Virus record (IMG/VR): IMGVR_UViG_3300042882_001046
Location: 54,269-118,268 of that record
Length of the DNA stretch: 64,000 nt
Strand: one strand, 5' to 3'
Source: a virus
The notes below the pieces were generated by a model that saw only the letters and a program-made list of their open reading frames with translations, was not told where the DNA came from and searched no databases. This document shows positions 6,242 to 54,743 of this stretch, one piece after another (position 1 is the stretch's first letter; every line of letters starts with the position of its first letter). The position numbers and the translations under genes were made by a program.

Positions 6242-6664
6242 GGGGATGAAATGGTATCGATTGGCATTGTTGGGGATAAGTGGCACGTAGTCAGAATTCA
6301 TCTATGACTTTAATCTATGGTGAAGACAATTAGCTGGCAATACTTTTGCTAAGATGGCGACTTTAGGTTTAACTAGAGAAGCTTCTGTTGTAGCTGCCTA
6401 AGAGGTAGTCACAACCGTTACTCCAACCAAGTTGGTGTAACCTCGGGTCGATTAGGACGTTAACCTAGGAACAGAAGTCCAATATACGGGTCACAGGTCA
6501 GAGCTCGTTTAAAATAATTCTGAGACCAGGTTGTTTGTAAGTTTGGTTCCCACATACATCAAACTTAATATTTCGGAACGTTGAGAAACAACGTTGTACT
6601 AAACGTGTAGTCATTTATTGTCAAAGTGAGCAAGACGCGGGTTCGACTCCCGCCATCTCCACCA
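6242..6664 (+). ncRNA. ssrA: tmRNA
   Basis: Acceptor GGGGATG/CATCTCC with G3:U70, discriminator A and encoded CCA; T-arm GCGGG-TTCGACT-CCCGC; tag ORF 6336-6401 GNTFAKMATLGLTREASVVAA* after UAGCU resume context. Confidence 0.93.
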
Positions 6665-17915: not shown

Positions 17916-18031
17916 GTTTTTTTGTTTTTTGTTTGTTATGTATTTTATTAACTTATGAACCATAAATATATGAAGAATTATCTTATGTGTCAATTATTTT
18001 AAAAGTTTTTTTTTGTTAAAATTTTGTTATG

Positions 18032-18117
18032 CGGAGAGTGTTGGGCTCGAACCAACGCGGCTGTTACACCCTACCTGTTTAGCAAACAGGCCCCTTCACC
18101 AACTTGGGTAACCCTCC
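18032..18117 (-). tRNA. trnS: tRNA-Ser(GCT)
   Basis: Cloverleaf; anticodon arm CCTGT-TTGCTAA-ACAGG; long variable arm. Confidence 0.93.
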
Positions 18118-18456
18118 TTATTGTAATAATTGTATTAAATAATAAGATAATTTATATCCTGTAAACGCACCAAGAGCTGATGGTAATGGGAAAACAATCA
18201 TTTTACCTAAATCTGTAACGTATTTTGGTCTGTTAACAATCTTACCCATATAAAAGTAATATGTTAAGTACCCTAATAACACCGCTAAATCCGTTCTTGT
18301 TGCAATGAATACAACAATAGTCGCACCAATAAAACCAAAAGTAAAATTATCTCTAACTCCTTCCCAAATTTCAAATGTGGTAGCCTCTTTGTACTCTTTA
18401 ACAATTTTTTTAAACTTTGTTCTGTTTGTCTGTTTTTTTTTAATTTGTGATTCCAT
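18118..18456 (-). CDS. Membrane protein inside the tRNA array
   Basis: 112-aa ORF with hydrophobic helices filling the gap between two tRNAs. Confidence 0.65.
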   Translation of the reverse strand: MESQIKKKQTNRTKFKKIVKEYKEATTFEIWEGVRDNFTFGFIGATIVVFIATRTDLAVLLGYLTYYFYMGKIVNRPKYVTDLGKMIVFPLPSALGAFTGYKLSYYLIQLLQ

Positions 18457-18457
18457 G

Positions 18458-18531
18458 TTGGAATAGATGGATTCGAACCATCGACATCTACCGTATCAGG
18501 ATAGCGCTCTAACCAACTGAGCTATATTCCA
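18458..18531 (-). tRNA. trnI: tRNA-Ile(GAT)
   Basis: Cloverleaf; CTATC-CTGATAC-GGTAG. Confidence 0.92.
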
Positions 18532-18536
18532 ATGTG

Positions 18537-18706
18537 CTGTAAGGGAAGGAGTCGAACCTTCAAGAGGAGATTCAATTGATAACACAACGCTTGCAAGCTG
18601 GTGGTCTACCCCATATTATCAATCTATTTCTTTGTCCCCGCCCCCGAGACAGGAGGGTGCGTATGCCAAGGTCATAACTGAGACAACCTAATTTCGCCAC
18701 CTTACA
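18537..18706 (-). ncRNA. Oversized (170 nt) tRNA-like RNA with insertions in D-loop and variable arm
   Basis: Perfect acceptor TGTAAGG/CCTTACA, T-arm GAAGG-TTCGACT-CCTTC, Leu-like D-arm GCG...CGC. Confidence 0.75.
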
Positions 18707-18711
18707 ATTTG

Positions 18712-18798
18712 CGGAGGAACAGGGATTCGAACCCCAGATACCCTTTCGAGTATGCCAGTTTTCAAGACTGGTGCAATCAACCGCTCTGCCATTCCTCC
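18712..18798 (-). tRNA. trnS: tRNA-Ser(TGA)
   Basis: Cloverleaf; CCAGT-CTTGAAA-ACTGG; long variable arm. Confidence 0.93.
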
Positions 18799-18802
18799 AA
18801 AT

Positions 18803-18902
18803 AAAAGTGTTTTGGTCAACCACTCGCTACCCACCGCAGTATGACGATTCCCCCTGTGGTCATCGTACTTACGCCTAAGCCTTGTCCGTTGTAAACACTT
18901 TT
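18803..18902 (-). ncRNA. Structured inter-tRNA element
   Basis: 10-bp closing stem AAAAGTGTTT/AAACACTTTT. Confidence 0.45.
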
Positions 18903-18903
18903 G

Positions 18904-18977
18904 GGTGACTAACGGGAATCGAACCCGTGACAACTTGAACCACAATCAAGCGCTCTACCTACTGAGCTATAGACACC
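18904..18977 (-). tRNA. trnH: tRNA-His(GTG)
   Basis: G-1:C73; CTTGA-TTGTGGT-TCAAG. Confidence 0.9.
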
Positions 18978-18982
18978 ATATG

Positions 18983-19052
18983 TTGCGTGTATGAGGTTCG
19001 AACTCACTTGACCTTCCTTATGAGAGAAAGTTCTTTCCCACTAAGCCACGCA
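18983..19052 (-). tRNA. trnM: Atypical tRNA (CAT), probably elongator Met
   Basis: CTCATAA loop and normal T-arm; 6-bp acceptor and shortened acceptor/D junction. Confidence 0.6.
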
Positions 19053-19058
19053 GTTTAG

Positions 19059-19130
19059 TGGTTTTATTAGGACTCGAACCCAAACTCCGAAATCCGTAGT
19101 TTCGTGTGCTATCCATTACACCATAAAACC
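19059..19130 (-). tRNA. trnR: tRNA-Arg(ACG)
   Basis: CGAAA-CTACGGA-TTTCG. Confidence 0.92.
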
Positions 19131-19134
19131 GTTG

Positions 19135-19205
19135 TTGTCCCTCAGGGATTCGAACCCCAACTGGATGGACCAAAACCACCTGTACTACCGTTATACTAAA
19201 GGACA
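19135..19205 (-). tRNA. trnQ: tRNA-Gln(TTG)
   Basis: GGTGG-TTTTGGT-CCATC. Confidence 0.92.
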
Positions 19206-19213
19206 CTTTAGTG

Positions 19214-19293
19214 TGGGAGTGGAGGGATTCGAACCCCCAATGTCGACGACCACAGATTTACAGTCTGCTAAGCAACCGTTGCTCAACACTCCC
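19214..19293 (-). tRNA. trnY: tRNA-Tyr(GTA)
   Basis: GCAGA-CTGTAAA-TCTGT; long variable arm. Confidence 0.92.
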
Positions 19294-19296
19294 AAG

Positions 19297-19477
19297 TTAG
19301 GAAAGGAGAAGATGGTCGAGTGGACATCTCCTTTTACGATTGGCATTACTCAGGTGTATTTCTCCCAACTCCGATGATACCGACCAAAATACACTCTCAT
19401 GTCATAGGTACCACCATTCCCCAATCAACCTATAAAACGATAATAGAATGTCCCAGCCGTCTCCTTCTCTTATCTAA
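19297..19477 (-). ncRNA. 181-nt structured RNA with probable pseudoknot, family unknown
   Basis: 5'/3' purine-pyrimidine closing helix, GGACAT/ATGTCC, ATAGGT/ACCTAT, GTGTATTT/AAATACAC, loop GATTGG complementary to distal CCAATC. Confidence 0.6.
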
Positions 19478-19526
19478 CATACACTAACAGCTAAATACGG
19501 CTTGACTGATTATACTGTATGTTTTG

Positions 19527-19600
19527 CACGGGTGGAGAGGTTCGAACTCCCGACAACTGGTTTTGGAGACCAGTACTCTACCAAACTGAGCTACACCCGC
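19527..19600 (-). tRNA. trnW: tRNA-Trp(CCA)
   Basis: CTGGT-CTCCAAA-ACCAG. Confidence 0.93.
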
Positions 19601-19605
19601 TTATA

Positions 19606-19848
19606 TTACCTATACTTCCTGATAATCTTCATTATCTCTCCGATATCTGTAAGTTCCATCTTTTGTCCGACACGGATTGGATAGAATGCCACGGTAAATC
19701 CGTGGTTTCCACAAAAACGTTCGGTTACTCTTTTTCCATTAACTTTTTCAAGATAAATCCATGGAATGTTACCTGCGAATTCACATTTGATTCCCAGTTT
19801 GTCCATTCTTCTTCTGAAATCGTTTAATACTCTTGTGTCTGTTTCCAT
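19606..19848 (-). CDS. Hypothetical protein inside the tRNA array
   Basis: 80-aa ORF between trnC and trnW. Confidence 0.65.
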   Translation of the reverse strand: METDTRVLNDFRRRMDKLGIKCEFAGNIPWIYLEKVNGKRVTERFCGNHGFTVAFYPIRVGQKMELTDIGEIMKIIRKYR

Positions 19849-19862
19849 AAGTTTATTTTTTG

Positions 19863-19934
19863 AGGTCGAACCCAGAATCGAACTGGGGTAATTAGTTTTG
19901 CAGACTAACGCCTAAGCCGCTCGGCCACCCGACC
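19863..19934 (-). tRNA. trnC: tRNA-Cys(GCA)
   Basis: TTAGT-CTGCAAA-ACTAA; U73. Confidence 0.93.
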
Positions 19935-19940
19935 ATTGTT

Positions 19941-20174
19941 TTATTTAACCATATCAAAGTTAATCATATTCTCTGACATTAATTCACGAAGTTCATTTCT
20001 TATTTCCTGATATGCGTCATACTTGTCCTGTGGTAAATCATCGGAAGCATATTTAGTTTTCGCTCTCAATGATTGGTCCAAATCCCAAAGTATTGACCAC
20101 ATCTTCATTCCTTTAGTTGCCAAGTCGAAATCTTGTTGGTCCTCAGGTAAATTAAATTCTAAAACAGCTTTCAT
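19941..20174 (-). CDS. Hypothetical phage protein
   Basis: MKAVLEFNLPEDQQDF...; ATG 20174 preferred to track start. Confidence 0.65.
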   Translation of the reverse strand: MKAVLEFNLPEDQQDFDLATKGMKMWSILWDLDQSLRAKTKYASDDLPQDKYDAYQEIRNELRELMSENMINFDMVK

Positions 20175-20352
20175 TTTTTTTCTCTTTATATTTTTTACAT
20201 CTCTTTTTTGGTACTTCAACGTAATATGAACCCATAAACGATGAGAATACACCAACGTAGTTGGACCCAACCTCTTTTACATCATGGAGCACTGAACCCT
20301 CAAAAAGGTTGAAGAAGATGTCAGTACAGTCTTTTTTTGTTACAACTTTCAT
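20152..20352 (-). CDS. Hypothetical protein
   Basis: TATATTTG (20357-20364) 4 nt before ATG 20352. Confidence 0.6.
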   Translation of the reverse strand: MKVVTKKDCTDIFFNLFEGSVLHDVKEVGSNYVGVFSSFMGSYYVEVPKKRCKKYKEKKNESCFRI

Positions 20353-20390
20353 ATTACAAATATACACAATTTTATTTAATTTTTCTAATG

Positions 20391-20464
20391 TGACCCCGCC
20401 GAGATTCGAACTCGGGACTCCTTCATTAAAAGTGAAGTGCTCTAGCCAACTGAGCTACGAAGTC
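20391..20464 (-). tRNA. trnK: tRNA-Lys(TTT)
   Basis: CTTCA-CTTTTAA-TGAAG. Confidence 0.93.
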
Positions 20465-20470
20465 TTATTG

Positions 20471-20543
20471 TGGTAACGGTCAGAATCGAACTGACGACAC
20501 CTTGGTCTTCAGCCAAGTGCTCTACCAACTGAGCTACATCACC
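20471..20543 (-). tRNA. trnF: tRNA-Phe(GAA)
   Basis: CTTGG-CTGAAGA-CCAAG. Confidence 0.93.
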
Positions 20544-20548
20544 ATTTG

Positions 20549-20621
20549 TAGTCCCTGTAGGAATCGAACCTACGACATCTTGCATGTAAAACAAGCGCTC
20601 TCCCAACTGAGCTAAAGGACT
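20549..20621 (-). tRNA. trnV: tRNA-Val(TAC)
   Basis: CTTGT-TTTACAT-GCAAG. Confidence 0.92.
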
Positions 20622-20626
20622 GTTTG

Positions 20627-20700
20627 TACTCCGTACGGGGCTCGAACCCGTAATCTTCACCGTGAAAGGGTGACGACTTAACCAATTTGTCCAACGGAGC
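20627..20700 (-). tRNA. trnE: tRNA-Glu(TTC)
   Basis: TCACC-CTTTCAC-GGTGA. Confidence 0.93.
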
Positions 20701-20754
20701 AATTATTCAACAAAAATACGACCAATAAATCAAAGAACCAAAAAACATCAAAAT

Positions 20755-20787
20755 AAAAAACCCCGAACCTTTTTACGAGTTCGGGGT
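20755..20787 (-). terminator. Attenuator-type terminator upstream of tRNA array A
   Basis: ACCCCGAAC-N10-GTTCGGGGT followed by T-run; 5' arm complementary to AGTTCGG in leader ORF. Confidence 0.85.
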
Positions 20788-20820
20788 ATATAAAAAATTT
20801 AGTTTATTAATCTAAAAAAA

Positions 20821-20919
20821 TTATCCTATTTTGACATCCGAACTACATAATAGCATACGCTCATACCAACAAATCGATTGTTGTGTACTAAAGACCATAT
20901 GTTTAAATGTAGTTTTCAT
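20821..20919 (-). CDS. Leader peptide A (32 aa) MKTTFKHMVFSTQQSICWYERMLLCSSDVKIG
   Basis: Read by hand; sits between a consensus promoter and a terminator; codon content mirrors downstream tRNAs. Confidence 0.85.
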   Translation of the reverse strand: MKTTFKHMVFSTQQSICWYERMLLCSSDVKIG

Positions 20920-20937
20920 TGTTTCTTATATATAGTA

Positions 20938-20968
20938 CAAAGATACAAAAAAATCTTTGGGTGTCAAA
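20938..20968 (-). promoter_or_regulatory. Bacteroidota primary-sigma promoter for leader A
   Basis: TTTG(20968-20965)-N19-TATCTTTG(20945-20938). Confidence 0.8.
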
Positions 20969-20993
20969 TATTTTTTTTAACTATTTATAAAAG

Positions 20994-21413
20994 ATGAAAA
21001 CATTGAGACAAATCATTAAGGAAGAATTATTACTTGAAAAAAGAATCACTCAAGTTAATTCGTCTTTAGAAGTAGTATTCCTATTTGACGTAAACAGGAC
21101 CACTCACGCCTTTGATAGAGACACAAGAGATGATATTGAAGGGTATAATGTAAGACCGATTGTTAACGCTGAAATTAGAGAGATTATCAGTACAGTAAAA
21201 AAAGATATTGCCGAAAAAATAGTTTCAAGGGAAATTAACCCTGAAGTAGATTTTGTTGTAAAGTCCTTAAAATGGGAATTAGCCATGGCAATAACTCCTG
21301 TTCATATTGGAGGAACTTATTGGCAATTAATTATCAAAACAGTATTCAGAGAATCCAAATACAACCCTTTTAGAGTGGGTGAAAACCAATTGGTGATTTA
21401 CTCAGACATTTAA
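20994..21413 (+). CDS. Hypothetical, probable virion protein
   Basis: TATTTATA 4 nt before ATG; N-terminal IIKEELLLE. Confidence 0.65.
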   Translation: MKTLRQIIKEELLLEKRITQVNSSLEVVFLFDVNRTTHAFDRDTRDDIEGYNVRPIVNAEIREIISTVKKDIAEKIVSREINPEVDFVVKSLKWELAMAITPVHIGGTYWQLIIKTVFRESKYNPFRVGENQLVIYSDI

Positions 21414-21504
21414 AAAAAAAAAGGGTAACACTAGTATCTGAATCGTTCCCGTGTTACCCAGTTTGTAATTGAGCTTGTGTATCTAAATCGTGCTCCTCAA
21501 TCAC
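21412..21504 (-). ncRNA. Two-hairpin small RNA with duplicated loop motif ACGATTYAGATAC
   Basis: TATCTTTG (21509-21516); stems GTGATTGAG/CTCAATTAC and GGGTAACAC/GTGTTACCC; 11-nt U tail. Confidence 0.75.
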
Positions 21505-21543
21505 AATACAAAGATACAAAAATATTTCGTACCACAAAAAATA

Positions 21544-22254
21544 TTATCCCTGAATATTAAAATTAATCACACATCTGTGAGTTTTTCCGTAAAAAGGTTT
21601 AACCGAATGAACAATATCGTAAGGCCAAATTATTAACATCCCTTTCTTTGGTCTAATAAAGTAAGACATTCCCCTAACGTGAAATGTAAATACCCCACTA
21701 TATGGATGGTCATCAACTGGGTCTCCGTCAGATAGATAATAACCACCAGAAAAGTTTAAAGTTGTTTCTTCATTTGGTTGCCATCTACAATGATTATGAG
21801 CGTTATGTCCACGACCTTCAGTTGGATTATAATATTGCATCCAACTCTCAGTAATCATTGGTTTTCTGTTGTGTTCAAATCCAAGTTTGTCCAGCATCTC
21901 CATATAACCCAATTCTACCCTTTTTTTAATTTTCTTAACACATTCCTCATCTATATTAAGAAAATCGTTTGGCGGGGTCCAAAATCGACTACCAATGGGG
22001 TTATGTTCCGTTGGTTCCACCCACATGTCTTGCCTATTGTAGTTTACTTGATATGTAGATTGTCTTTGTTCGTCGTATTGTTCTGGTAACTCTTGACCCA
22101 TCAATTTTTGTTGGTCGGTTAGAGCATTAAAACCAAAATTATAAACTTCGTCTTGAAGTTCGTCATCTGTGAATACTTTCATAAACACAGGAATAGGTGC
22201 AAGATGAAAAAGATTCTCCTGACTTGTTTTAACTAATGGATTTTTTACGTACAT
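21544..22254 (-). CDS. Putative 2OG-Fe(II) oxygenase
   Basis: HNAHNH, SGGYYL, IWPYDIVHSVKP, RCVINFN. Confidence 0.7.
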   Translation of the reverse strand: MYVKNPLVKTSQENLFHLAPIPVFMKVFTDDELQDEVYNFGFNALTDQQKLMGQELPEQYDEQRQSTYQVNYNRQDMWVEPTEHNPIGSRFWTPPNDFLNIDEECVKKIKKRVELGYMEMLDKLGFEHNRKPMITESWMQYYNPTEGRGHNAHNHCRWQPNEETTLNFSGGYYLSDGDPVDDHPYSGVFTFHVRGMSYFIRPKKGMLIIWPYDIVHSVKPFYGKTHRCVINFNIQG

Positions 22255-22267
22255 AATTTAAATCTTG

Positions 22268-22348
22268 TACCCCAAGAGAGACTCGAACTCTCACGACCGA
22301 AGTCATTGGTTCCTAAGACCAACGCGGCTACCGTTACGCCATCGGGGT
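22268..22348 (-). tRNA. trnL: tRNA-Leu(TAG)
   Basis: TTGGT-CTTAGGA-ACCAA; variable arm. Confidence 0.92.
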
Positions 22349-22351
22349 GTG

Positions 22352-22443
22352 TCATTATCGCTTCAGCCACATCGGGAAAGGCGCCTCTCCCGCGTTGTTT
22401 AAGTGTGTAACTTGCGCCGTATCTCACTGAGGTACGATAATGA
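22352..22443 (-). ncRNA. Structured inter-tRNA element
   Basis: 9-bp closing stem TCATTATCG/CGATAATGA; inner hairpin CGGGAGAG-GCGC-CTTTCCCG. Confidence 0.5.
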
Positions 22444-22446
22444 TTG

Positions 22447-22520
<74 letters not shown>

Positions 22521-22524
22521 ATTG

Positions 22525-22610
22525 TACCGAGGGAGGGACTCGAACCCTCACGGCCGTTTACTGACCAAGGGATTTTAAGTCCCTCGTGGCTACCATTACA
22601 CCACCTCGGC
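22525..22610 (-). tRNA. trnL: tRNA-Leu(TAA)
   Basis: AGGGA-CTTAAAA-TCCCT; own promoter TATATTTG at 22620-22627. Confidence 0.93.
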
Positions 22611-22648
22611 ATTGTCTTACAAATATAACCTTTATGGAATCATAAATC

Positions 22649-22683
22649 AAAAAAAACCCCAAACTTTTTTTTTAGTTTGGGGT
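22649..22683 (-). terminator. Intrinsic terminator
   Basis: CCCCAAACT/AGTTTGGGG followed by T8. Confidence 0.75.
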
Positions 22684-22709
22684 CCTATTATATAAAGTTA
22701 TTACCTTTT

Positions 22710-23441
22710 TTATTGAGCATCAAACTCTTCTTCCCATAACGTATCAGAAGAATTTTCTTCTGTATTATAAGTGTGATTTAATTCAATTGTCATGTCATTG
22801 AAATTAAATACGAACTCTCCGTCTGACCCTTCATTAATTTCCCAACCACCATAATGACTTTCAAGTTGATTATAACACCAATCTTCAATTGTTGACGGAA
22901 CTGAATCACCATTTTCTTCAAATGAACTTTCAATATAACCAGAATCCCCCGAACCATTATATCTTAGAGTTAATATTCCATCTTGTGGAATTTCTAAATC
23001 AGATAGAACCCCATCTTTTTCCCATTCTTCAAAAATTTCTTGACCTTCTTCTTCTGACCATTCAGTCCCACTAGCGTCTCCTCTATCATACCAAGACCAA
23101 TAATGGTTAAATGAAATGTCTTTGTTTGCAGAATTAATACTAATCTCAAACTTTTGCCATGACATCGCATCAATATCTGGTGTCTCACTACTATATAATT
23201 CTTGGTCAGACGCATACTTCGTAATTTTTTGAAGTATCGGTATCAACCCTGACGGAACGTCCGCTCTCCAGTTATTGGAGAAATGTGTCATTTGATTCCA
23301 ATCTATATTATTATAGTTAAGTGTATCACCATAATCATCCATCTCGAATTCAAACTCACCGACTTCCATTCCGAGAGAGCTCAAATAATTACAAACTCTT
23401 CTCAGGTATTGTTTTTCTTCTGTTGTTAAAAGTTTTTCCAT
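22710..23441 (-). CDS. Acidic protein with DUF6878-like C-terminal region
   Basis: YNGSGDSGYIE and GGWEINEGSDGEF motifs (family name from memory). Confidence 0.55.
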   Translation of the reverse strand: MEKLLTTEEKQYLRRVCNYLSSLGMEVGEFEFEMDDYGDTLNYNNIDWNQMTHFSNNWRADVPSGLIPILQKITKYASDQELYSSETPDIDAMSWQKFEISINSANKDISFNHYWSWYDRGDASGTEWSEEEGQEIFEEWEKDGVLSDLEIPQDGILTLRYNGSGDSGYIESSFEENGDSVPSTIEDWCYNQLESHYGGWEINEGSDGEFVFNFNDMTIELNHTYNTEENSSDTLWEEEFDAQ

Positions 23442-23452
23442 ATAAATAAATA

Positions 23453-23806
23453 TCAGTCTTCAAACTCTAATTTCATTGTTTTTAACATCCATTGGGGTCT
23501 TTGATTTGACGAGATGTTACTAATCCACTCTTTGGCTGAAGGTATGTAATTATTACAATCTTCTTTTACGTGTTGTTCTCCAACATATCGGGTATAAACT
23601 GTTTTTCCGTCTGAGTTTAAGAACTCAGTTCCAAATCTTTTTTCCATTTCAAAAATTCCTTCACTATGATGTCTAAACATTCTATGAAGAGAATCTCCAA
23701 ACCAAGATTTGGTTTCATCTAACCATTCATGTAAATGAATGTAATCCTCAGGTTTTCCTCCAAACTTTTTGGCGGATGATTTTGCATGTAAATTTGGATG
23801 TGCCAT
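23453..23806 (-). CDS. DUF6915-like His-rich protein
   Basis: MAHPNLHAKSSAKKFGG...HRMFRHHSEGIF...HVKEDC (family name from memory). Confidence 0.65.
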   Translation of the reverse strand: MAHPNLHAKSSAKKFGGKPEDYIHLHEWLDETKSWFGDSLHRMFRHHSEGIFEMEKRFGTEFLNSDGKTVYTRYVGEQHVKEDCNNYIPSAKEWISNISSNQRPQWMLKTMKLEFED

Positions 23807-23808
23807 GA

Positions 23809-24042
23809 TTATTTAATTTGTGAGTTGTTTCTTCTTGCTTCCTCAGCTTCTTTGTAAACCCTAACCCATGTTAAAAATACATCAATAGGTGCTAAAATCC
23901 AACACATAATAATTAACGCCATACTCTCAAGACCTGGAGATATTCCAAGACCACCTGACATAACATCTCTGTTCCATTTTCTAATTGACATGATTACGCA
24001 GTAAATGAAACAAACAACGTAATACGACCAAAATAATTGCAT
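23809..24042 (-). CDS. Small membrane protein
   Basis: Two hydrophobic helices; ATG 24042 (track start overlaps trnA). Confidence 0.6.
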   Translation of the reverse strand: MQLFWSYYVVCFIYCVIMSIRKWNRDVMSGGLGISPGLESMALIIMCWILAPIDVFLTWVRVYKEAEEARRNNSQIK

Positions 24043-24057
24043 AAATAAAAGTTTTAG

Positions 24058-24130
24058 TGGAGAATGAGGGAATCGAACCCACGACAACTTGAATGCAAAT
24101 CAAGCGCTCTACCAACTGAGCTAATTCCCC
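24058..24130 (-). tRNA. trnA: tRNA-Ala(TGC)
   Basis: G3:U70; CTTGA-TTTGCAT-TCAAG. Confidence 0.93.
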
Positions 24131-24136
24131 TGTTTG

Positions 24137-24209
24137 AGCCTCCTGTCGGAATCGAACCAACGACCTACTGATTACAAATCAGTTGCTCTACCTGCTGAGC
24201 TAAGGAGGC
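24137..24209 (-). tRNA. trnT: tRNA-Thr(TGT)
   Basis: ACTGA-TTTGTAA-TCAGT. Confidence 0.93.
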
Positions 24210-24259
24210 ATTTGTGGGTGTATGCTCATCACATACTCATGGGTTCCCACAACCCGTTG

Positions 24260-24332
24260 AGCGGAAGACCAGGCTCGAACTGGCCACCCCCGACTTGGAA
24301 GGACGGTGCTCTACCAAATGAGCTACTTCCGC
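24260..24332 (-). tRNA. trnG: tRNA-Gly(TCC)
   Basis: CCGTC-CTTCCAA-GTCGG (one T-T mismatch); U73. Confidence 0.9.
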
Positions 24333-24337
24333 AATTT

Positions 24338-24413
24338 TGGCGGTCCCGACGGGATTCGAACCCGTATCTCGCACCGTGACAGGGTGGAATTGTAACCATT
24401 CAACCACGGGACC
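24338..24413 (-). tRNA. trnD: tRNA-Asp(GTC)
   Basis: CTGTCAC loop; the only tRNA here with encoded CCA. Confidence 0.92.
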
Positions 24414-24441
24414 GTGTGTGGGGAGTTTCACCCCAAACTTT

Positions 24442-24933
24442 TTAATTTGTTAAGATGTGTTGATGTTCTCCGATTACTCGTTTTAAACTACTAACATATC
24501 TCTTATCAGACGCATATACCCTTCCGAGTAGTGCAAGATACTGATTTTTTGTCAAATCGTCTTTACCTTTTAACATATAATCTTGCCATAAAAAGTAATC
24601 ATATACGCTAAGGTTCCAATCTGTATATTTTGAGTATCCGCTCTGAGTTTTACCAACTGAAGACGTTTCTCTTTTTGTTGGAACTCTCATTCCAAACAGA
24701 TTGTTTGCCGTTTTGAACAATTTTGATGTAAATGCTCCTGACTCTAACACAGCTTGTGCAAACACAATATCAGGAAATTTTATACCAAACTTAATTATCT
24801 GCTCGTACAATTCTTCTTTTGTCAACCTATCATCTTGTGTCTGATAAGTTGTTTGTACTTGCTTCTCTTGTGCTTTTGTTGTCATTGTTCCTAACAATAA
24901 CAACACAGTCAATAAGAATGTTTTTAACTTCAT
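24442..24933 (-). CDS. Glucosaminidase-domain (GH73-like) peptidoglycan hydrolase with signal peptide
   Basis: AQAVLESG, NNLFGM, YASDKRY motifs. Confidence 0.8.
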   Translation of the reverse strand: MKLKTFLLTVLLLLGTMTTKAQEKQVQTTYQTQDDRLTKEELYEQIIKFGIKFPDIVFAQAVLESGAFTSKLFKTANNLFGMRVPTKRETSSVGKTQSGYSKYTDWNLSVYDYFLWQDYMLKGKDDLTKNQYLALLGRVYASDKRYVSSLKRVIGEHQHILTN

Positions 24934-25013
24934 TTCTTTCTTTTTGTCTGTTTATGCTTCAGGATTACTCCATCCACGATACCACAACATTGGAAATTTT
25001 CCACCCACCTCAG

Positions 25014-25085
25014 CTGCTCCACCTGGGCTCGAACCAGGATAAAAGGATTAACAGTCCTCCGTAATAACCATTATACGATAGAGCA
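25014..25085 (-). tRNA. trnN: tRNA-Asn(GTT)
   Basis: GAGGA-CTGTTAA-TCCTT. Confidence 0.92.
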
Positions 25086-25122
25086 AAATTATAATCAAAT
25101 TTTCCAACAAAGGAAACTTTTG

Positions 25123-25196
25123 TCGGGATGGCTGGATTCGAACCAACGGCCTCCACGTCCCAAACGTGGCGCGATACCTGACTACGCTACATCCCG
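25123..25196 (-). tRNA. trnP: tRNA-Pro(TGG)
   Basis: CCACG-TTTGGGA-CGTGG. Confidence 0.93.
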
Positions 25197-25201
25197 TACA
25201 T

Positions 25202-25232
25202 AAAAAAACCCTGAAGTATTAGTTCAGGGTTT
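25202..25232 (-). terminator. Attenuator-type terminator 5 nt upstream of trnP
   Basis: AAACCCTGAA-N7-TTCAGGGTTT-TTTT; 5' arm and loop complementary to AGTTCAG in leader ORF. Confidence 0.88.
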
Positions 25233-25254
25233 AGATAATTGGCTATAATATTGT

Positions 25255-25353
25255 TTACCAACCACTCGCTTCTGAACTTACGCAAATAGTGCCCGCATCC
25301 CCATTAGGAGTTGTCGGTGTGTCTAAATTCGTATTTGTGTTCATAGTTTTCAT
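25255..25353 (-). CDS. Leader peptide B (32 aa) MKTMNTNTNLDTPTTPNGDAGTICVSSEASGW
   Basis: Read by hand; TATTTATT at 25367-25374; codon content mirrors downstream tRNAs. Confidence 0.85.
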   Translation of the reverse strand: MKTMNTNTNLDTPTTPNGDAGTICVSSEASGW

Positions 25354-25398
25354 AGTGCAATATTACAATAAATATATTTAAAAACCAAAAAATAAATA

Positions 25399-26181
25399 TT
25401 AGTTACTAAAACCTCTCAAATAAACATCATTTGTCATATTGAAATTAATCCTCATTGATGAGTTTGGATAAGTACTATAAACTCTATATTGACCCTGTGG
25501 AATTACATTCCCTGTATAATTAATCAAGTATGATGACAACTGAGTATTTGTGTTCAACACTGTTTGACTATTGTTAGCACTTGACACTATTCTTGTACCG
25601 TTTTTCGCATAATAACCAATTCTAGTTTGTCTTTTTGTATCATTATTCATTGCCGAGACAGGAATCAAAACTAAAACCCAAGCGTTATCATTAACAGTAT
25701 TTTTAGATATTTTTACTGTTGTAAAATTATATGCCATTTTAGGGTTACCGTGTTCATCAACTCCACCACTTACTTGTGGTATGTCAGCCTGAATAACTTG
25801 TGGTAACACACCATTAGTCCAAAATGGCATGTTTAAATAATTGTTTAAATCTCGGTAATTGGTATTTTGAATACTCACCATTGTCCAACAAGAGTAAAAT
25901 GGAACGCTTGTAGATTGTGGGTTTCTTGGAACTGAGTTTTTAAGGTAATTAACAATTAATGTTGTTTTAGCTTGCTTTTCAATAAAAACATACGCCTTCA
26001 AATTAGGTGTTGAACTTGTCGTAACCCTTAAATTAGGGTTCGTACTTGAAGTTGAGTTAAGTTCTTGGGATTGCTCAATTTTAGTTTTTTCGAAGTCTAC
26101 TCCAGTGATGTCTTCTTTAGAACAAGACACAACAAATACCGATAAGGTAAGGAATGATAATAATAATTGTTTGATTTTCAT
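25399..26181 (-). CDS. Hypothetical lipoprotein
   Basis: Lipobox VVSC followed by SKED. Confidence 0.7.
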   Translation of the reverse strand: MKIKQLLLSFLTLSVFVVSCSKEDITGVDFEKTKIEQSQELNSTSSTNPNLRVTTSSTPNLKAYVFIEKQAKTTLIVNYLKNSVPRNPQSTSVPFYSCWTMVSIQNTNYRDLNNYLNMPFWTNGVLPQVIQADIPQVSGGVDEHGNPKMAYNFTTVKISKNTVNDNAWVLVLIPVSAMNNDTKRQTRIGYYAKNGTRIVSSANNSQTVLNTNTQLSSYLINYTGNVIPQGQYRVYSTYPNSSMRINFNMTNDVYLRGFSN

Positions 26182-26191
26182 GATTGTTTGT

Positions 26192-26473
26192 TTAAATGTA
26201 TTTTTTAAAAATTGTTTCTAAGGTGTCTTCATCTTCCCTACTTATAACATGAAATTTTTGAGATAACTTATCCATTTTCTCTAAAAATTCATCTTCTAAA
26301 ATAGATGTTTTTGGTTTACCATTTTTATCAGTTTGTATTTGAGACAACACTGATTTAGGTAAATGGTTTTCTTCAACTAACCCTTCAATTAATTCTTTAA
26401 TTTCTCTTGGGTCACAGGCCGTAACAAATTCATACGGGTCAATGTCGATTTCTTCTACACAAAATTCAGGCAT
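26192..26473 (-). CDS. Hypothetical protein
   Basis: 93-aa ORF in operon-like spacing. Confidence 0.65.
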   Translation of the reverse strand: MPEFCVEEIDIDPYEFVTACDPREIKELIEGLVEENHLPKSVLSQIQTDKNGKPKTSILEDEFLEKMDKLSQKFHVISREDEDTLETIFKKYI

Positions 26474-26498
26474 AATTATTTTTTTTTTAATAGTTTAG

Positions 26499-26572
26499 TG
26501 GACCAGCCTGGGCTCGAACCAGGGACCTTCACATTATGAGTGTGTTGCTCTAACCAACTGAGCTACAAGTCC
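26499..26572 (-). tRNA. trnI: tRNA(CAT), probably Ile2 (lysidine type)
   Basis: CTCATAA loop; Ile-like acceptor and D-arm; own promoter TATCTTTG at 26582-26589. Confidence 0.8.
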
Positions 26573-53642: not shown

Positions 53643-54743
53643 TTAAGGTTTTAATACAGCAACAACCTCGGGGTATTCTTTTTCTAAGACTTTTTTGTCT
53701 TTACCCTCATAAGGAATATTTTGTAAAATGTATCTAATGGCGTTTAATCCCGATATTCTTTTATCTTGTGAATCAATAATAACCCAAGGATTGTTAACTG
53801 TGGAGGTTTTATCAAAAAGTTTTTCTTTAAATTCTGTAAATCTATCCCATAGGTCTTGCATTTTTGAATCATTTGGAGAATATTTCCAATATTTTAATGG
53901 CGATTTTTGTCTGATGTCAAATCTTCTTTTTTGAGTATCTTTTTCAATTGAAAACCATAACTTAAACAAATAATCTCCTTCTCTAACTAAATCGTTTTCA
54001 AAATTCTCAACGTTTTCCATAAAGTCCTCATACTCTTCTGGTGACCCGTATCCCATAACAGGCTCAACTAAACCTCTGTTATACCAACTTCTATCAAAGA
54101 AATTAATCATTCCTGGTTTAATTTCTCTTTTGTATCTTCCCCACCAATCTTTTCTATCTTCAGGACTTGGTATCCCTAAAGCAACCACATTGTAGTATCT
54201 TGGATTTAAATTTTCTGTAAATTTCTTAATTGTAGAACCTTTACCTGCAGAATCCCTACCTTCAAAAACTATGATTACTGTTTTACCTGTTTTCTTTAAC
54301 CATTCTTGTAATTTCAACAATTCAACTTGAAGTTCAAACATTTCTTTTTTGTAAACTTTCTTTGGGACGATTGATGGTTCTTCGTCAAAGTCAAATTCAT
54401 AATCTTCAGCGTCAGGTTCAACACCATACCCTTTTTTTTCTCTAAATTTTAAAGAACTGATTATTTTACCAAAATAGTCTGATACGTTTCTTTTTTTGTC
54501 TCCCTTCTTAAGTAGAACTTTTCTAAGTCCTCTCTCTAACAATCCAAAATCAATAATTTGTTCTTTGGCTAAATTGGTAATTTCAATCAACATCCTCTCA
54601 ATTGTCGGGTTATAGATTTTAAGATACCTTAAAGCCTCCACACTTTTTGATAAATTAATGTTAAGATGTTTTGGCGAATTTTTATCTTCGGTCATCACAC
54701 CCATTACACTTTTGATTCTATCTATCTCATTTAATAACTGCAT
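53643..54743 (-). CDS. ppk2: Polyphosphate kinase 2 with about 120-aa N-terminal extension
   Basis: FEGRDSAGKG, FDRSWYNR, KLWFSI, KYWKYSP. Confidence 0.92.
   Translation of the reverse strand: MQLLNEIDRIKSVMGVMTEDKNSPKHLNINLSKSVEALRYLKIYNPTIERMLIEITNLAKEQIIDFGLLERGLRKVLLKKGDKKRNVSDYFGKIISSLKFREKKGYGVEPDAEDYEFDFDEEPSIVPKKVYKKEMFELQVELLKLQEWLKKTGKTVIIVFEGRDSAGKGSTIKKFTENLNPRYYNVVALGIPSPEDRKDWWGRYKREIKPGMINFFDRSWYNRGLVEPVMGYGSPEEYEDFMENVENFENDLVREGDYLFKLWFSIEKDTQKRRFDIRQKSPLKYWKYSPNDSKMQDLWDRFTEFKEKLFDKTSTVNNPWVIIDSQDKRISGLNAIRYILQNIPYEGKDKKVLEKEYPEVVAVLKP

Follow-up and report, generated by a model that had tools for sequence, protein, structure and literature searches.

Type III toxin-antitoxin systems such as ToxIN, CptIN and TenpIN encode a tandem-repeat RNA upstream of the toxin gene, the two forming one operon with a terminator between them (PMC5086642). 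Their toxins share a Kid/MazF/ToxN-like fold and process the RNA units, which are pseudoknots. An antitoxin mimic can also be carried by a phage, as with the pseudo-ToxI RNA of phage PhiTE, which neutralises an RNase and counters a host-encoded Abi toxin (PMC3475682). RegB of phage T4 (PF10715, PDB 2hx6), a small basic early protein, is a RelE/YoeB-like enzyme with H48 as its catalytic histidine (PMC3014915) that targets single-stranded sites beginning GG(A) (PMC3014915, PMC1702504), and an anti-RegB partner is an open possibility for T4 (PMC3014915). T4 regB has no neighbouring sRNA, and a literature search turned up no report of an RNA partner for any RelE/RegB-fold RNase. Small RNAs in other arrangements include those of the type I systems txpA/RatA and par of pAD1, in which convergent RNAs overlap at their 3′ ends and work through base pairing, with small membrane peptides as toxins; the CsrB/RsmZ RNAs, in which several loops display one short motif; and T4 rnaC and rnaD, small stable RNAs of unknown function in a tRNA gene region, which are co-transcribed with the tRNAs and not from a promoter of their own.

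The window analysed here comprises 64,000 nt (positions 54,269 to 118,268) of the 118-kb virus record IMGVR_UViG_3300042882_001046, which has a CheckV completeness of 39% and is therefore a jumbo phage fragment. The GC content is about 33%. The source is a large freshwater phage whose promoters are of the Bacteroidota type. Within the window, an sRNA gene and an RNase-like gene form a cassette within an island of 23 minus-strand tRNA genes (18031-26572). Protein genes interspersed in this island encode a 2OG-Fe(II) oxygenase (21544-22254), a DUF6878 protein (22710-23441) and a DUF6915 protein (23453-23806), and a tmRNA gene with the tag GNTFAKMATLGLTREASVVAA lies elsewhere at 6242-6664 on the plus strand. 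The setting recalls that of T4 rnaC and rnaD, but neither RNA resembles the sRNA in sequence or structure.

The predicted sRNA, of ∼85-93 nt, runs on the minus strand from a +1 near G21504 to a U-tract (21412-21504). Upstream lies a Bacteroidota-type promoter (21509-21538, minus strand) of the form TTTG-N18-TATCTTTG, with a −33 TTTG, an 18-nt spacer and the −7 box at 21516-21509, and a 4-nt spacer, TATT, separates this box from the first hairpin. The pattern TTTG-N17-20-TAnnTTTG is enriched in the window, with 18 occurrences against 3.7 expected and none of 100 shuffles reaching 18, and relatives keep both promoter boxes at a conserved distance from hairpin 1. Hairpin 1 (21465-21504) has an AU-rich stem of 9-11 bp, in which GTGATTGAG (21504-21496) pairs with CTCAATTAC (21473-21465), and a 22-nt loop, GAGC-ACGAUUUAGAUAC-ACAAG, that holds the first copy of the loop motif, ACGATTTAGATAC, at 21479-21491. 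Hairpin 2 (21423-21459), which is also the intrinsic terminator, has a GC-rich stem of 9 bp formed by GGGTAACAC (21459-21451) and GTGTTACCC (21431-21423) and a 19-nt loop, GGGA-ACGAUUCAGAUAC-UA, with the second copy, ACGATTCAGATAC, at 21434-21446. The two loops have ACGATTYAGATAC in common, and the stems of the two hairpins are unrelated. The U-tract of 11 T (21412-21422) follows, its last bases overlapping the stop codon of a convergent gene on the plus strand.

RNAfold returned both hairpins (-32 kcal/mol, z -2.3). The 13-mer is present exactly twice in the 118-kb record, and a search of that record for a further hairpin-displayed copy found none. Rfam scans of the sRNA by gathering score and by E-value assigned no family, the best match being of terminator type, to DapZ (E 0.21), and a DNA search of GenBank phages gave no match. 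In freshwater metatranscriptome contigs from four runs the oxygenase gene is covered and one contig stops 12 nt into hairpin 1, the sRNA itself appearing in none. On its conserved promoter and structure, we infer that the ∼90-nt RNA is a genuine, uncatalogued and independently transcribed phage gene.

The same architecture is found in more than 40 IMG/VR phage contigs and three contigs of metagenome-assembled genomes (MAGs). The sRNA family is widespread, as well as uncatalogued, in freshwater Bacteroidota phages. An IMG/VR scan gave 27 contigs with two or more motif copies 20-45 nt apart, and all 27 share a common order of −33/−7 promoter, motif-loop stem, GC-rich second motif hairpin and T-run, with the first stem starting 4-5 nt past the −7 box. 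Three or four hairpins are present at five loci, where they are tandem duplications of the two-hairpin unit. In three-hairpin variants (L121, L129, L130, L148) the inserted middle hairpin has its own conserved loop, AACGAAACAAUC, and the 13-mer may have A at its seventh base.

Among 49 distinct hairpin units there are 39 different 5′ stem strands, and the mean hairpin energy is -8.5 kcal/mol for native hairpins versus -3.5 kcal/mol for chimeras with swapped 3′ strands. When 18 hairpin units were aligned in register over eight stem pairs and compared with shuffled and slid controls, 93% of cells were paired versus 57% in shuffles, both-sided changes were found at all eight pairs, and the covariation score was 1.02 versus 0.30 in shuffles (reached by 0 of 500), with slid controls at 0.43 or below. 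The loop is nearly invariant over roughly 20 nt, with the consensus RGGNA-ACGAUUHAGAUAC-AA and 16 invariant columns. Selection thus acts on the loop motif, while the stems drift. The spacing between motif copies takes values of 35, 40, 41, 45, 46 and 53 nt, which are not multiples of three, and TAA occurs in the would-be frame of some variants; no reading frame is conserved, which makes the element a structured RNA rather than a micro-ORF.

These results agree with most of what an earlier note on this DNA had drawn from the letters alone. Its description of the −7 box, the 4-nt spacer, both hairpins, the loop copies and the 11 U on the minus strand proved correct to the base. Its proposal of a stand-alone unit is borne out in relatives, where the promoter, both hairpins and the terminator are kept, as is a predicted start at the first stem base or close to it. 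Its view that the loop motif is selected on unrelated stems is upheld by the covariation, and loop conservation in homologues, the lack of which it would have counted against its reading, is present, the motif being nearly invariant there.

The gene tail-to-tail with the sRNA, P0001 (20994-21413, plus strand), encodes 139 amino acids and is the sole plus-strand gene of a minus-strand block; a search beside it for a candidate protein antitoxin found none. Its 276 close homologues are all unnamed metagenomic or viral proteins, and the family comprises about 130 clusters at the 50% identity level. Searches of P0001 with PADLOC, Pfam, PHROGs and PDB sequences were uninformative apart from one weak DUF4258 match; the nearest named Atlas cluster was also a DUF4258 cluster (0.78), which serves as a lead only, and the Pfam RegB profile (PF10715) did not match.

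The AlphaFold model of P0001, a soluble alpha/beta protein, had a pLDDT of 80, rising to 84.8 with 55 sequences. Foldseek searches against BFVD (E 2e-5 to 1e-3, probability 1.0) matched a T4-like 'site-specific RNA endonuclease' and a protein of Tenacibaculum phage PTm1; a 575-aa protein annotated with a sigma-70-like domain was also matched. The first PDB match of the 84.8-pLDDT model was T4 RegB, 2hx6, a weak match at E 0.17. With VIA-align, 25 of the 28 best rows were RelE, HigB, YoeB, ParE, YafQ, BrnT, colicin E5, CdiA-CT or RegB (Z 3.8-6.1), and the longest alignment was to RegB, over 96 residues at Z 4.9. An hhalign comparison of the P0001 and RegB families (E 9e-4, 101 columns, probability 22%) superposed E15 and H38, both near-invariant among 55 family members, on the invariant E19 and H48 of RegB, and the second RegB histidine, H68, has no evident counterpart. 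On the structural matches and the E15/H38 alignment, we call P0001 a RegB/RelE (BECR)-fold protein, probably an RNase and outside Pfam RegB.

RNA and protein are closely linked. A P0001 homologue with 45-99% identity is present in 23 of the 27 motif-found contigs, in convergent orientation and ending 20-30 nt from the last hairpin. The unbiased direction starts from loci found by the P0001-family protein alone, of which 38 are informative: the motif RNA is convergent and immediately downstream of the gene at 36, and the remaining two have a different, pseudoknotted RNA. The protein family was sought at about 35 related oxygenase loci without the RNA and was in none. Synteny with cassette-less relatives reaches 21551 and resumes at 20975, and other genes occupy the slot there. 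As judged from this synteny, the sRNA and the P0001 gene are gained or lost together as one block of 575 bp (20976-21550), which fills a slot of variable content, flanked on one side by the 2OG-Fe(II) oxygenase gene and on the other by the next conserved block. In close relatives the slot holds a second oxygenase-like gene (L032:3772-4934, L039:3720-4298), accompanied in L032 by a 195-aa ORF; this variety of contents makes it a hot spot for accessory modules. Among 301 genomes of the probable host class, the P0001 family is all but missing.

Just past the cassette on the minus strand (20745-20968) is another small unit, with a consensus promoter at 20938-20968, a terminator at 20760-20787 and a 32-codon ORF inside a strongly folded stretch of ∼190 nt (z -6.1). 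It is kept at about 83% in cassette-less relatives and may represent either a gene for a small protein or a further sRNA.

More distant members of the P0001 family (about 25-35% identity) also have a convergent promoter, a structured RNA and a terminator, but the RNAs are others. One clade has a pseudoknotted RNA of roughly 130 nt, in which a compensatory change from CCGAG/CUCGG to UCGAG/CUCGA is found. This RNA, seen downstream of P0001-family genes at L090/L091/L092, L093/L094, L099/L100 and L150/L151, has a conserved hairpin, GGGUYGAAYCGAGAYUACCC, with a loop that pairs with a downstream CUCGR, followed by further hairpins and a terminator. In two other distant clades (L095:512-720 and L098:406-545, reverse strand) the sRNAs have two hairpins and repeat motifs of their own, with two copies of AUUCAWUUAGAGAU in the one and two of GUCAGAAKAC in the other; a YAGA core is common to both motifs and that of the window. 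An Rfam scan of these distant-clade RNAs gave nothing at the gathering score. In L090, L092 and L098 the distant RegB-like gene is convergent to a phage sigma-70 gene.

The cassette can be compared with several known systems, and it coincides with none of them. With type III systems it shares an RNase-type protein, a small non-coding repeat RNA, the lack of a protein antidote, a link to phages and clade-specific RNA/protein pairs. It differs in that there is no upstream tandem array in one operon; the RNA has its own promoter, is convergent and terminates at the protein gene's 3′ end. The repeats are hairpin loops instead of pseudoknot units processed by a toxin, the top structural matches of the protein are RelE, ParE, RegB and colicin E5 and not MazF or ToxN, and the cassette is phage-borne and essentially absent from host-class genomes.

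With T4 RegB, likewise small and basic, the protein shares a similar size, the same RelE-like BECR fold class and equivalents of the conserved E19 and H48, although the PF10715 profile does not recognise it. The sRNA loops also start with a GG-containing purine tract, but the loop sequence mismatches the RegB consensus GGAGRAYARAA. A RelE-like UAG/CAG preference was considered as an account of the variable Y of the motif and was weakened, A being found at that position too and RelE specificity being relaxed (PMC5224514).

Not every copy of the RNA has the protein beside it. Seven motif-bearing loci, three of them MAG contigs, have no P0001-family member nearby (L004, which is IMGVR_UViG_3300042890_001306, L010, L016, L020 and L086-L088). 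These orphan copies keep promoter, loops and terminator. L004 is a 31-kb phage rated 100% complete with the P0001 family nowhere in its genome, and in L020 all that is left of a deleted RNase gene is its final codons (IYSDI*). The orphan copies indicate that the RNA has value without the enzyme in cis. Pseudo-ToxI offers a model for them, as a phage-carried antitoxin mimic, with the difference that it counters a host-encoded toxin, whereas the RNase family here is phage-borne and essentially absent from the 301 host-class genomes.

Loops that are invariant and single-stranded, borne on interchangeable stems and present in two to four copies, point to a trans-acting RNA that is recognised by way of these loops. 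The sRNA shares its cassette with a RegB/RelE-fold gene, and the likeliest ligand is therefore the phage's own enzyme and not a host protein; the almost constant presence of this neighbour, its fold of toxin type, the absence of any protein antidote and the differing RNAs of different clades all favour it. The reading that we prefer, with a probability of roughly 45%, is that the sRNA is a multivalent partner or inhibitor of the phage's own RNase, antitoxin-like in the type III sense in its function, and it is the binding itself that we infer. The sRNA would be transcribed from a host-type (Bacteroidota) promoter, be terminated by its own second hairpin and present two single-stranded loops of roughly 20 nt, with the sequence of the stems immaterial. 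Each loop would be a specific docking or pseudo-substrate site for the convergent RNase, such that one RNA might bind two enzyme molecules, or up to four in the tandem-duplicated versions, and keep an otherwise toxic RNase buffered or timed during infection. In phages lacking the RNase, the orphan RNA may act as stand-alone immunity against competitors that carry it.

Several observations count against this assignment of the ligand. Besides the seven orphan loci, the 13-mer is exact beside a protein only 27% identical (L154), and a 45%-identical homologue in a 635-kb uncultured phage (L115, LR745206.1:314668-316251) has a plain terminator and no such sRNA. The fold matches are middling (Z at most 6.1, hhalign probability 22%), with no Pfam RegB match and no H68 equivalent. 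An exact 13-mer at 27% protein identity could also indicate a more conserved ligand, for example a host factor or the ribosome. Going further, to a new protein-RNA toxin/antidote module of Bacteroidota phages with a convergent, separately transcribed sRNA, cognate RNAs that are clade-specific (hairpins or pseudoknots), orphan RNAs as phage-versus-phage immunity and a first example of the 'anti-RegB' partner suggested for T4 and never found, is a tentative step that we consider somewhat unlikely to hold in full.

The strongest alternative, though a rather doubtful one, is that the loops serve, early in infection, to titrate a conserved RNA-binding protein of the host or a component of its ribosome, and it stays live because orphan copies exist, one of them in the complete 31-kb phage, with promoter, loops and terminator but no RNase gene. 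The RNase gene would then stand beside the RNA because both act in the same pathway, as T4 RegB depends on ribosomal protein S1, which stimulates its cleavage at GG^AG. The invariance of the motif across protein identities of 27-99% fits this account, as do the requirement of RegB for S1 and the modulation of the RegB-S1 interaction by T4 RIII (PMC1702504, PMC9409239, PMC3014915). In the 635-kb phage, the convergent neighbour of the RNase-like gene encodes a protein with an S1-type RNA-binding domain. We know of no requirement of S1 for a specific 13-nt sequence, and no candidate ligand was found.

The earlier note had proposed just such a bivalent sponge or decoy for a host protein. The bivalent binding role remains the most natural reading, while the host-protein ligand gives way to the convergent RNase-like gene of the cassette. 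The note's comparison with CsrB/RsmZ is apt insofar as several loops display one short motif and contain GG(N)A, but the conserved element here is 13-16 nt long rather than GGA and is present at only two to four sites. CsrA (PF02599) is found in one of 101 host-class genomes, with no signal in the Bacteroides thetaiotaomicron control, and the analogy cannot hold literally. Nor did the host search that the note had suggested, which covered three MAGs and 301 host-class genomes, show the motif as a CRISPR repeat, in a recurrent leader or otherwise as a repeated element; clustered motif copies there are sRNA loci only. Scattered one-mismatch matches seemed, by an uncounted reading, only modestly above the reversed control, and six of nine motif matches in genome contigs were unrelated tandem repeats. 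Mimicry of the 16S rRNA 790 loop (GAUUAGAUAC) was rejected as a candidate: the best local alignment to host-lineage 16S falls there, but shuffled loops do equally well (p 0.13-0.49). A host ligand would also leave unexplained the different RNAs of distant RNase clades and the near-100% presence of an RNA beside the protein.

It is less probable, and on balance unlikely, that the RNA acts in cis as an antisense regulator in the manner of type I systems, where the RNase mRNA, by read-through, would gain complementarity to the sRNA, and RNase expression would fall through duplex formation or transcriptional interference. The two genes are tail-to-tail with the U-tract abutting the stop codon, the convergent arrangement is conserved, and on the plus strand hairpin 2 is followed only by AGUUUGU, with no U-run there in relatives, so that the terminator is weak on this strand and the RNase mRNA probably reads into the sRNA gene. 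Convergent toxin and sRNA genes that share a terminator region are indeed a type I trait; here the genes abut at a shared hairpin, and the extent of overlap depends on the 3′ ends. Type I RNAs nevertheless lack an invariant loop motif repeated on unrelated stems, and P0001, as a soluble alpha/beta protein of 139 aa, is no small hydrophobic toxin. Complementarity over the overlap needs no conserved sequence, which leaves unexplained an invariant loop repeated two to four times on covarying stems, as well as the orphan copies and the pseudoknotted RNAs of other clades. A search for additional complementarity with the 5′ part of the RNase mRNA found none. In tests of pairing with phage tRNAs, tmRNA and the RNase mRNA, loop 1 did no better than shuffles, and loop 2 reached p of about 0.015 against tRNA-Ser, but through a non-conserved linker. 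An antisense component could accompany inhibition of the phage's own RNase by the loops; binding to that enzyme, titration of a host factor and antisense control are not mutually exclusive and may hold together.

That there is no RNA gene at all, hairpin 2 being a bidirectional terminator between convergent genes next to a chance hairpin, or the 16-codon frame from G21504 being a leaderless micro-ORF with GTG at +1, is highly improbable given the conserved promoter, the covarying stems around an invariant loop, and the motif spacing and in-frame TAA codons described above.

Inhibition of the phage's own RNase by the repeated loops thus remains the preferred reading, and with a cassette of only 575 bp and clear loop and catalytic-residue mutants to make, the question is directly testable. 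Should the neighbouring enzyme prove to be bound by the loops, RNA antidotes would reach beyond the ToxN/Kid fold to the large RelE/RegB (BECR) RNase superfamily, in a different gene layout, and RegB-type phage RNases would have in the sRNA the partner long suspected for them. To our knowledge, the Bacteroidota hosts of such phages lack Hfq. The sRNA family described here adds to the very scant knowledge of RNA biology in freshwater Bacteroidota phages.
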